The notes below the pieces were generated by a model. That model worked only from the letters and a program-made list of their open reading frames with translations, was not told where the DNA came from and made no database searches. This document shows positions 33,273-35,077 of a DNA stretch of 64,000 nucleotides, in pieces (within the stretch, counting starts at the first letter, position 1; every line of letters begins with the position of its first letter). The stretch is from a virus. A program made the position numbers and the translations under genes. Where the stretch lies: the IMG/VR virus record IMGVR_UViG_3300020404_000006; one strand, given 5' to 3'.

Positions 33273-33974
33273 CTATAAGAACAGTCTTTGACTCAACCTC
33301 ATTTCCTCTTCATACATGCCTGCCGTAACAAATGGTGCTTGCAACATATCAGCGGGAATAATAATCGCTCTATTGTATTCCATACCAAACATCATACATT
33401 GTTTCCATGCAAGAACTGATTCATAAACATCTTTTCTAAGTGAGAAAGCATCAGCATCTGCATACATATTCTTCATGTCCTCTTGAACAGAAGTCTTTCC
33501 AGCAAATGACCAAACATCAGTGCCACCGCAGTTGGGCATATTTTTATTGAGAAAAATTTCTATGGTAAATTGAAATGGACTTGGGTTTTCTGCATAGTAA
33601 ACTTGATGTGGTAGTAACTGTAATGGTTGTTTAGCAACAGTATCTTGGTCAATCCAATCCACTAGGAATGGCATGAAATCCATGTTCTTCTCTACAAAAC
33701 TTCTATCTGTTGGTCTACCCCAGAATTGGTCATCATAGAGTAATTCTTTGAATAATCTTTCAGTGTTCTTCCGTAACTCCTCAGTTTCAAGAACTGATCT
33801 AGTTCCTGAGTGATGATTAACTAATGGTATATCTTCTCTCTTTGGTAATCTAAGTGCCAGATTCCTTATCTCATCAGGATTCTGGTAAAAATTATCTATC
33901 AACATAGCAGACCTATTCTCAGGTCCTATCTCATTGATAGCAACAACTTCTAACTTTTCACTTAATTCAAACAT
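33273..33974 (-). CDS. DUF6445-like 2OG-fold protein with degenerate metal ligands
   Basis: MLIDNFYQNPDEIR, GGTDVW, MEYNRAIIIP; HxD replaced by HQV and distal H by Q. Confidence 0.55.
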   Translation of the reverse strand: MFELSEKLEVVAINEIGPENRSAMLIDNFYQNPDEIRNLALRLPKREDIPLVNHHSGTRSVLETEELRKNTERLFKELLYDDQFWGRPTDRSFVEKNMDFMPFLVDWIDQDTVAKQPLQLLPHQVYYAENPSPFQFTIEIFLNKNMPNCGGTDVWSFAGKTSVQEDMKNMYADADAFSLRKDVYESVLAWKQCMMFGMEYNRAIIIPADMLQAPFVTAGMYEEEMRLSQRLFL

Positions 33975-34155
33975 CTTTGTTTCTTTCTTCTACTAAATGT
34001 TCAACTTCTGAGGCAACTTTGTCCATAACCTCTCTCACATTAGTTCCTGATCCAGAGGTGTGGTAGTAATTCTGCCCTTCGGGGGCATAATGTCTGGTGT
34101 GAAGTGTCCAATGCCACTCTTTAATATCTTTTGAATACCAGAATTGTAATCTCAT
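33967..34155 (-). CDS. Small hypothetical protein
   Basis: 62-aa ORF just downstream of the tmRNA. Confidence 0.55.
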   Translation of the reverse strand: MRLQFWYSKDIKEWHWTLHTRHYAPEGQNYYHTSGSGTNVREVMDKVASEVEHLVEERNKDV

Positions 34156-34173
34156 GAGTGTTTTAATTTATAT

Positions 34174-34478
34174 AGGAGGGGGCAAAGCCCCCACAGTCAC
34201 TTGGTTAACAAGGAGTGACTAATCCCCGATTGCCCCTTAGGCAGTGACGAGTTCGTCAGTGCGGGCAAATTCTCTTGTGAGAACACGAGAGAATGCTACG
34301 ATGTTGTTCGCAGCGGTGTCGATGTTATTAGCATCTGTGTTTTGCTTATCCAAGCAGGTTTTCAGTCATGTTCCGTATACCCTGTCGAAGCCTGGGCATC
34401 CCCTTGAATGGAGATGAGGGGAATCGAACCCCTGTCCAGAATGTCGGTGACACCACCTACATGTCTTTTTGAGTCATA
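34174..34478 (-). ncRNA. ssrA: Circularly permuted (two-piece) tmRNA
   Basis: Minus strand reads acceptor piece ...GGACAGGGGTTCGATTCCCCTCATCTCCA (ends 34408), a 4-nt spacer, then coding piece AGGGATGCCCAGGCTTCGACAGGG (starts 34403) with G3:U70; tag frame ANNIVAFSR... like cyanobacterial tags; outer ends approximate. Confidence 0.92.
34237..34332 (-). other. tmRNA tag reading frame ANNIDTAANNIVAFSRVLTREFARTDELVTA*
   Basis: Translated by hand; GCT at 34332 and GCG at 34311 are in frame; TAA at 34239-34237. Confidence 0.85.
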
Positions 34479-34486
34479 CATCAGGA

Positions 34487-35077
34487 CTATACAATCCATG
34501 ATATCCACGAATATCTGACTCCTTTTGTAACTGGAGTCACTTCATGTGGAAACAAGTACAATGCTGGAAATACTAACACACTTCCCTTCTTTATATTGAC
34601 TGTGTGTTCCTTCCAAAACCTAAACTCACCTCCTTCAAAATCGTCATTCAACACACCCACCACACTGGTAACAGGTATGCCTCTAAATTGTCCTTGAAAG
34701 AAATCTCGTATATGATCGTAGTGAGGACTCAAATAATCGCCAACATTATACTTATTAAATTTTATACCTGAGCAAGCTTCCCAAAATGAACCGCTAGTTT
34801 GACCCTCCTCAACATCATAGTAATTATATTTTTCATGAAAAGCAGCAAACAACTCACCATTTATATGTGGTTGTATTATGTTTGTAGCCTCTGGAGCAGT
34901 TACGGTTGATTGCATATTTGATTCTTTATCAATATCAACCTGTTCAAAGTCCTGATACCACGAGAATTCACCCCATTCACGAGAATCTAAAAGAGATACT
35001 ATCTGATCACATTCCTGATCAGATAGCAAATCATATTCAAATATGTGGTCTTTAAGATTCGGGTATTTTAGGACCAT
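34487..35077 (-). CDS. 2OG-Fe(II) oxygenase, prolyl-4-hydroxylase-like
   Basis: LSPHYD ... DDFEGGEF ... LFPHEVTPVTKGVRYSWISW. Confidence 0.85.
   Translation of the reverse strand: MVLKYPNLKDHIFEYDLLSDQECDQIVSLLDSREWGEFSWYQDFEQVDIDKESNMQSTVTAPEATNIIQPHINGELFAAFHEKYNYYDVEEGQTSGSFWEACSGIKFNKYNVGDYLSPHYDHIRDFFQGQFRGIPVTSVVGVLNDDFEGGEFRFWKEHTVNIKKGSVLVFPALYLFPHEVTPVTKGVRYSWISWIV

Follow-up and report, generated by a model that had tools for sequence, protein, structure and literature searches.

The permuted ssrA genes of Methylophilales phage Melnitz and Pelagibacter phage HTVC008M provide described precedents for the gene reported here: each is carried by a lytic, T4-like marine phage lacking smpB, and a role in ribosome rescue or amino-acid recycling has been proposed for both (PMC9004378). 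Phage tmRNA more generally has been surveyed repeatedly. Phage examples in a 2014 census came only from mycobacteriophages and Bacillus phage G (PMC4131195), while the 2022 ARAGORN survey of 18,146 phage genomes by Buchholz et al. found tmRNA in 402 phages, corresponding to 133 unique forms of which 53 were two-piece, 50 of these deriving from marine or aquatic phages (PMC9004378). The 2025 update of the tmRNA database included RefSeq viruses (PMC11915505). Table S1 of Buchholz et al. gives 'Permuted' for the phages S-SSM7, S-SSM6a, S-CAM1, S-CAM3 and S-CRM01 (PMC9004378), so that a permuted cyanophage tmRNA is not new as a kind and the gene in the window (the whole 64-kb stretch of viral DNA analysed), with a near-twin in S-SSM7 tabulated in 2022, adds little taken alone.

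Several differences nevertheless separate the gene from the other described systems. The tmRNAs of Melnitz and HTVC008M were reported to be related to those of SAR11 (alphaproteobacterial), whereas that of the window is of cyanobacterial type; a glutamine riboswitch is located at the 3' end of the Melnitz tmRNA (PMC9004378), while only tmRNA families are found by Rfam in the window. The mycobacteriophage Bxz1 group and Bacillus phage G also possess ssrA without smpB, but their genes are one-piece and unpermuted, and the TLD-only RNA of mycobacteriophage DS6A has no tag template, which the window gene retains (PMC4131195).

The permuted tmRNA gene and its parts

Default settings of ARAGORN suffice to detect the gene, which is called as a permuted tmRNA ('tmRNA*') at 34146-34498 on the minus strand, the sole gene called in the 64-kb window. 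The Rfam model RF01851 (cyano_tmRNA) matches over its full length (model positions 1-288) at 34178-34481, minus strand, with 111 bits (gathering score 70; E-value 3.3e-29), and the merged permuted model, RF04321 (tmRNA_permuted), scores 84.2 bits against a gathering score of 47. At gathering thresholds no Rfam families other than the tmRNA ones were matched in the window. The preliminary description of this DNA had placed a permuted two-piece tmRNA at 34174-34478 on the minus strand, almost exactly the interval recovered by the two programs. It had also put the T-arm and 3' acceptor piece before the 5' piece, and inspection of the sequence bears this out: reading along the minus strand, the T-arm and 3' acceptor strand (34410-34433) precede the 5' acceptor strand (34397-34403), in the circularly permuted order. 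The full set of parts is present, namely a T-arm, a 7-bp acceptor stem, a 17-pair P2, a tag frame with its stop codon, a 3' pseudoknot and a terminal hairpin, as listed here.

34178-34481, minus strand: whole permuted tmRNA gene (precursor), as delimited by Rfam cyano_tmRNA; the ARAGORN call is wider
34409-34481, minus strand: acceptor piece, first transcribed, comprising 5' leader, P2 5' strand, T-arm, 3' acceptor strand and the A at 34409; 5' end predicted
34437-34457, minus strand: P2 5' strand, GGU.GUGU..CC.ACAUUCUG, from covariation
34417-34433, minus strand: T-arm, AGGGG-UUCGAUU-CCCCU, invariant in 26/26 viral genes
34410-34416, minus strand: acceptor stem 3' strand, CAUCUCC, including U70; 98.4% paired
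34404-34408, minus strand: 5-nt spacer UUCAA between the pieces, presumably removed on processing
34178-34403, minus strand: coding piece, from G1 (presumed RNase P site) to the terminal hairpin; putative ends
34397-34403, minus strand: acceptor stem 5' strand, GGGGAUG, with G3 at 34401, from model and covariation
34364-34384, minus strand: P2 3' strand, CAGGGUAU..GG.ACAU.ACU, from covariation
34343-34356, minus strand: hairpin UGCUU-GGAU-AAGCA ahead of the tag template (helix 4, 87% paired)
34321-34335, minus strand: phage-specific hairpin hpA, GAUG-CUAAUAA-CAUC, holding the first GCU (34330-34332), with A(-4) at 34336
34237-34332, minus strand: tag frame, 31 codons plus TAA (34237-34239), encoding ANNIDTA + ANNIVAFSR + VLTREFARTDELVTA, from ARAGORN
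34295-34314, minus strand: hairpin hpB, GCUGCGA-ACAACA-UCGUAGC, tag codons 7-13; 99.4% paired
34195-34230, minus strand: 3' pseudoknot, stem AUCGGGGA/UCCUUGUU, whose loop AGUCAC is complementary to GUGACU (34195-34200)
34178-34192, minus strand: terminal hairpin GGGGGC-UUU-GCCCCC, probable 3' end (helix 8)

The details of the preliminary description fared variously. Its G3:U70 pair does occur in the window, and is invariant in all 26 aligned viral copies. The 5' strand given there as AGGGATG in fact reads GGGGATG, and the 'CCA' within TCTCCA represents C71-C72-A73, with the discriminator A73 at 34409; a terminal CCA is not encoded (TTCAA comes next). Of its two cross-piece pairings, AGGGT/ATTCT survives as part of P2, whereas covariation and the model favour GUGU/ACAU and GGU/ACU over ACATG/CATGT. 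The ANNIV core of the tag stands, but the tag cannot be described as a plain ANNIV one, having seven extra codons ahead of the core and a longer tail. As read by ARAGORN it comprises 31 residues, ending VTA: ANNIDTAANNIVAFSRVLTREFARTDELVTA*.

The picocyanobacterial layout previously attributed to the gene is indeed found, the same permuted order being present in Prochlorococcus, Synechococcus and Cyanobium. In common with the tmRNA of picocyanobacteria from freshwater and the sea (RF01851), the window gene has the permuted order, T-arm, G3:U70, A73, P2 and pre-tag hairpin, as well as the ANNIV..FSR core, the 3' pseudoknot, the terminal hairpin and an unencoded CCA (likewise not encoded in the Rfam consensus). 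Its two pieces are separated by a shorter spacer, 5 nt compared to about 14 nt in the Rfam consensus, and the 31-residue window tag, with its hairpin-forming seven-codon prefix and VTA end, contrasts with tags of 16 residues ending PVAA or SVAA in the 114 host species listed. Such a tag, with its Ala-Ala degron end, characterises the host subgroup and does not enter into how Rfam defines the family. The results support the identification of a phage-borne tmRNA gene that is complete, circularly permuted and of picocyanobacterial type.

The stop codon of the upstream gene (34487-34489) lies a few bases ahead of the tmRNA match. A sigma-70 promoter scan upstream of the tmRNA produced 4 matches where 3.0 were expected by chance, and none has a position from which it could serve the tmRNA. 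Since no T-run follows the terminal hairpin, we do not call it a terminator. Directly after this hairpin, at 34165-34172 on the minus strand, lies TATAAATT, some 10 nt before the ATG (34155) of a 62-codon ORF (33967-34155); it would differ at a single base from the T4-type late-promoter motif TATAAATA. Elsewhere, a 13-pair inverted repeat with a T-rich tail, flagged as terminator-like, occurs at 34997-35028 (minus strand) within the 2OG-Fe(II) oxygenase ORF (34487-35077). A single-sequence MFE fold (z = -3.8) missed the T-arm and P2 and was therefore left unused for the anatomy, although it pointed to hpB.

Phage context and relatives

The comparison covered 14 of the 64 kb, namely those around the gene. 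Over 96% of this stretch, identity to Synechococcus phage S-SSM7 and to Cyanophage S-SSM6a is 87.3%; both are T4-like cyanomyoviruses (Kyanoviridae, Lipsvirus) with Synechococcus WH8109 as their host of isolation. Gene order around the tmRNA is shared by the window and both isolates, in which the tmRNA occupies the same genomic place and is 94% identical to that of the window over 353 nt. Upstream is a gene for a 2OG-Fe(II) oxygenase, while downstream are a small ORF, a 'minor coat protein' and a tail fiber. The same arrangement recurs in several independent IMG/VR contigs, one of which (G002) is 230,739 bp long and 99% complete; this contig and S-SSM7 each contain exactly one cyano_tmRNA match, scoring 109 bits.

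A lack of smpB in the window, previously claimed, agrees with a tblastn search using host SmpB, the best match of which has a chance-level E-value of 1.5. Nor was SmpB found in the complete S-SSM7 genome or in the 99%-complete G002, for which searches a host control scored 177.6 bits.

The preliminary description had allowed that the contig might be a host-phage chimera at this point. This is excluded by the presence of the same arrangement, with the same junctions, in two isolates and several independent metagenomic contigs, a recurrence that equally opposes host contamination. A related proposal is that the locus is an attP-like tmRNA fragment used for integration, and 3' fragments of tmRNA genes do often serve temperate phages as attachment sites (PMC4383910). 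The present gene, however, is complete, and neither S-SSM7 nor G002 was found to contain a tyrosine integrase. We accordingly regard this whole group of explanations as vanishingly improbable.

The GenBank records of S-SSM7 and S-SSM6a contain no annotation of the tmRNA. At this locus the S-SSM7 record (NC_015287.1, 21009-21227, equivalent to L001:3043-3261, plus strand) has SSSM7_025 (YP_004324078.1), a 'hypothetical protein' of 72 residues starting at GTG, and a 72-codon open frame from GTG does exist there, as would be required were this a small protein-coding gene. The tag frame, however, makes up its final 31 codons, and the region ahead of these crosses the T-arm and acceptor stem. Furthermore, the equivalent frame in the window, where the sequence is 94% identical, is interrupted by TGA 43 codons before the stop, which argues that the S-SSM7 CDS is an artefact. 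A protein-coding gene thus hardly deserves credence as an explanation of the locus, and SSSM7_025 is probably a false CDS, mis-annotated in the reference genome. We consider it very probable that the virus, a lytic T4-like cyanomyovirus belonging with S-SSM7 (Lipsvirus-like), possesses a functional two-piece ssrA gene of cyanobacterial type.

Conservation and descent of the viral genes

Viral relatives were collected from IMG/VR through two scans, the first with a T-arm/acceptor pattern and the second with a tag pattern, and the resulting counts are lower bounds. ARAGORN, applied to the collected loci, recognised at least 94 unique viral permuted genes of cyanobacterial type, having at least 49 distinct tags. 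Covariation was assessed using the Rfam-model structure on an alignment of 26 viral genes; since these sequences are related, and the alignment partly model-guided, the figures obtained speak of structure being maintained and not of independent events. In this alignment 79.3% of cells are paired, compared to 44-54% when the 3' partners are slid. P2 (helix 1) has 89.9% of its cells paired and compensatory changes at 9 of its 17 pairs, while pair 5:68 of the acceptor stem occurs variously as UA, CG, GC and AU. The pairing of the pseudoknot loop with the segment following CCAA appears at only 47.7% when measured by columns (helix 7) as a result of alignment shifts; checked sequence by sequence, it persists in 90 of the 94 listed, with over 20 covarying versions among them. 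Every one of the 94 unique viral genes among the matches listed has an open tag frame. P2, the acceptor stem and the 3' pseudoknot are preserved by compensatory changes, and the gene is real and under selection.

For comparison with hosts, a pattern specific to the picocyanobacterial permuted gene matched at least 120 genome contigs, nearly all of them from Prochlorococcus, Synechococcus and Cyanobium. In the 114 host species among the matches listed the tags have 16 residues, are essentially ANNIV[RS]FSRQxAPVAA or ANKIVSFSRQTAPVAA, and end PVAA or SVAA. The same pattern also matched contigs labelled Klebsiella, Sphingobacterium, Bordetella and Lacticaseibacillus (L217, L146, L180 and L160), probably through binning or contamination errors; of these, L217 carries ANNIVRFSRQTAPVAA as its tag and clusters with Synechococcus.

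In a maximum likelihood (ML) tree containing 30 viral and 45 host rows, a branch with SH-aLRT support of 100 sets 29 of the viral rows to one side. The window falls within this all-viral side, its nearest row being S-SSM7. The separation of the viral clade indicates that the phage gene is not a recent capture, and this bears directly on the proposal that it is merely a passenger, a host ssrA acquired recently and decaying slowly with no role in the phage. Host-derived genes are certainly frequent in cyanophages and this one is of the type found in the host group, but the viral copies form a deep, separate clade that is not nested among the hosts, and at least 94 unique sequences have retained their helices via compensatory changes and kept the tag frame open. 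A passenger origin is therefore very improbable. The comparison indicates that the viral tmRNAs are a lineage of their own, evolving in phages apart from hosts.

The lone viral exception on the tree, L087 (657-1007, minus strand), has a very long branch among the hosts. Its tRNA-like domain groups with tmRNAs resembling those of Candidatus Synechococcus spongiarum, its tag is short (ANNIVSFRRTAVAV), and its sequence 3' of the tag is not alignable to the viral family. It may represent a separate capture or a broken copy.

The phage tag and its possible roles

The literature searched contained no account of the features of cyanophage tags. In 90 of the 94 unique viral genes among the matches listed, exactly seven extra codons (21 nt) precede ANNIV, encoding prefixes such as AKTDTPA, AKTSDTA, ANTSDSA and AKSSDTA; the ANNIDTA of the window is shared, among the matches listed, by L069 and three other viral genes. 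The tag-pattern scan was enriched for the seven-codon form, as it needed the sequence just past the prefix, but the same pattern emerged from the T-arm/acceptor scan, which made no requirement of the tag. The ends of the viral tags are diverse: among the 94 listed are ATA (29), VAA (28), VTA (14), ATV (11), VAV (6) and others, following tails of variable length.

The 21 nt of the prefix correspond to hairpin hpA, whose stem covaries (AGAUG/CAUCU, AUCUG/CAGAU, GACG/CGUC). The register first apparent in the window gave just 25% pairing across the family (helix 5) and was rejected; a register one base shorter, that used by the family, fits instead, with 88.9% paired and two pairs fully compensatory in 11 of 24 sequences. 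The next 20 nt constitute hpB, with the consensus GCNGCGA-AYAAYA-UCGUNGC, in which both UA to AU and GC to AU exchanges are seen. S-SSM7 and the window have the long tag tail ...LTREFARTDELVTA in common, but differ in prefix, AKSSDTA in the former and ANNIDTA in the latter; as a consequence hpA has 6 bp and a 6-nt loop in S-SSM7 as against 4 bp and a 7-nt loop in the window.

Three tmRNAs of the viral clade, from IMG/VR contigs L053, L062 and L080, have host-like tags (ANNIVSFSRQ..VAA) without the seven-codon prefix and are grouped next to L078. Their position inside the viral clade implies that the prefix was lost there or was gained more than once. A complete tRNA gene is present in the tmRNA spacer of three IMG/VR contigs: Asn-GTT in L069 (2411-2483, minus strand), Tyr-GTA in L070 (13582-13664, plus strand) and Asn-GTT in L062 (1412-1486, plus strand). 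Ordinary tRNA processing would, in these cases, free both tmRNA pieces.

Three Ala codons are candidates for the point at which translation resumes, the first GCN and the two immediately before AAY-AAY. The first lies at the same distance past the upstream hairpin as does the host resume codon and has A at -4 in 59 of 59 distinct segments, while the base at -4 of the two later codons varies (C/A/U and C/U, respectively). Tag codons 1 and 2 vary at third positions only. Among the upstream bases of E. coli tmRNA the most conserved is A86, which precedes the resume codon by four positions and chiefly determines the frame (PMC2481249). These sequence features suggest that the resume codon is probably the first GCU, at 34330-34332. 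As a counterpoint, this codon and A(-4) would lie in or beside hpA, and pairing around the resume codon has been proposed as the cause of lost activity in one E. coli tmRNA mutant (PMC2481249). In the light of that argument, that such pairing can block function, the conserved hairpin at the resume site is the most unusual feature of the family.

By analogy with the steps of transcription, processing and charging established for bacterial two-piece tmRNAs (PMC9004378; PMC11915505), a single precursor would be made, its transcription probably coinciding with, or coming immediately after, that of the upstream 2OG-Fe(II) oxygenase gene. Host RNase P would cleave ahead of G1 (34403), the 5-nt trailer past A73 would be trimmed and CCA would be added by the host enzyme, leaving two pieces held together by the acceptor stem and P2. 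The RNA would then be charged by host alanyl-tRNA synthetase and brought by host SmpB to ribosomes stalled on broken mRNAs. Translation would resume most likely at the first GCU, adding ANNIDTAANNIVAFSR...LVTA, so that the junction in a tagged protein would read X-ANNIDTAANNIV (AKSSDTA... in S-SSM7). The likely benefit to the phage would be that ribosomes are kept free as host mRNA is degraded and the supply of host ssrA falls. Ribosome rescue via host SmpB, or competition with host tmRNA, would each be a reasonable role during infection.

The second of these roles can be put more strongly: the RNA might act mainly as a competitor altering host trans-translation, taking up SmpB and AlaRS and either adding a tag with an altered degron, or none, or slowing tagging by the host, with rescue secondary. 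A phage without smpB must share that of its host, the nearly invariant PVAA or SVAA ends in the 114 host species listed stand against diverse viral ends and a seven-codon prefix in 90 of the 94 viral genes listed, and there is a precedent in mycobacteriophage DS6A, whose TLD-only RNA is similar to a molecule for which inhibition of tmRNA has been demonstrated (PMC4131195). On the other hand, tag frame, pseudoknot and A(-4) are all conserved, features that a pure decoy could do without, and 28 of the 94 viral genes listed still end in VAA. We consider a mainly competitive role unlikely, and prefer rescue through host SmpB.

Even with rescue as the main role, a tag that is longer than that of the host and does not end in PVAA may lead to a different fate for tagged proteins, and the VTA end, in place of the host VAA, makes degron function uncertain. 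It is possible, although we offer the idea tentatively and with some doubt, that this is an old phage-only lineage whose message has been rebuilt, with a 21-nt hairpin placed around the resume codon and A(-4), seven residues added and the tag end drifted from PVAA. If so, the phage would do more than top up rescue, changing either the start of tagging or the fate of tagged proteins, for example by evading or re-targeting host Clp/FtsH proteolysis, or through rescue without degradation.

Phage-borne tmRNA indicates an investment in ribosome rescue by certain lytic marine phages, and bears on how translation proceeds while host mRNA is destroyed. With its separate clade, its seven-codon hairpin at the resume site and its diverse tag ends, the cyanophage family offers a testable contrast with respect to the choice of resume codon and the role of the tag C-terminus in cyanobacteria.
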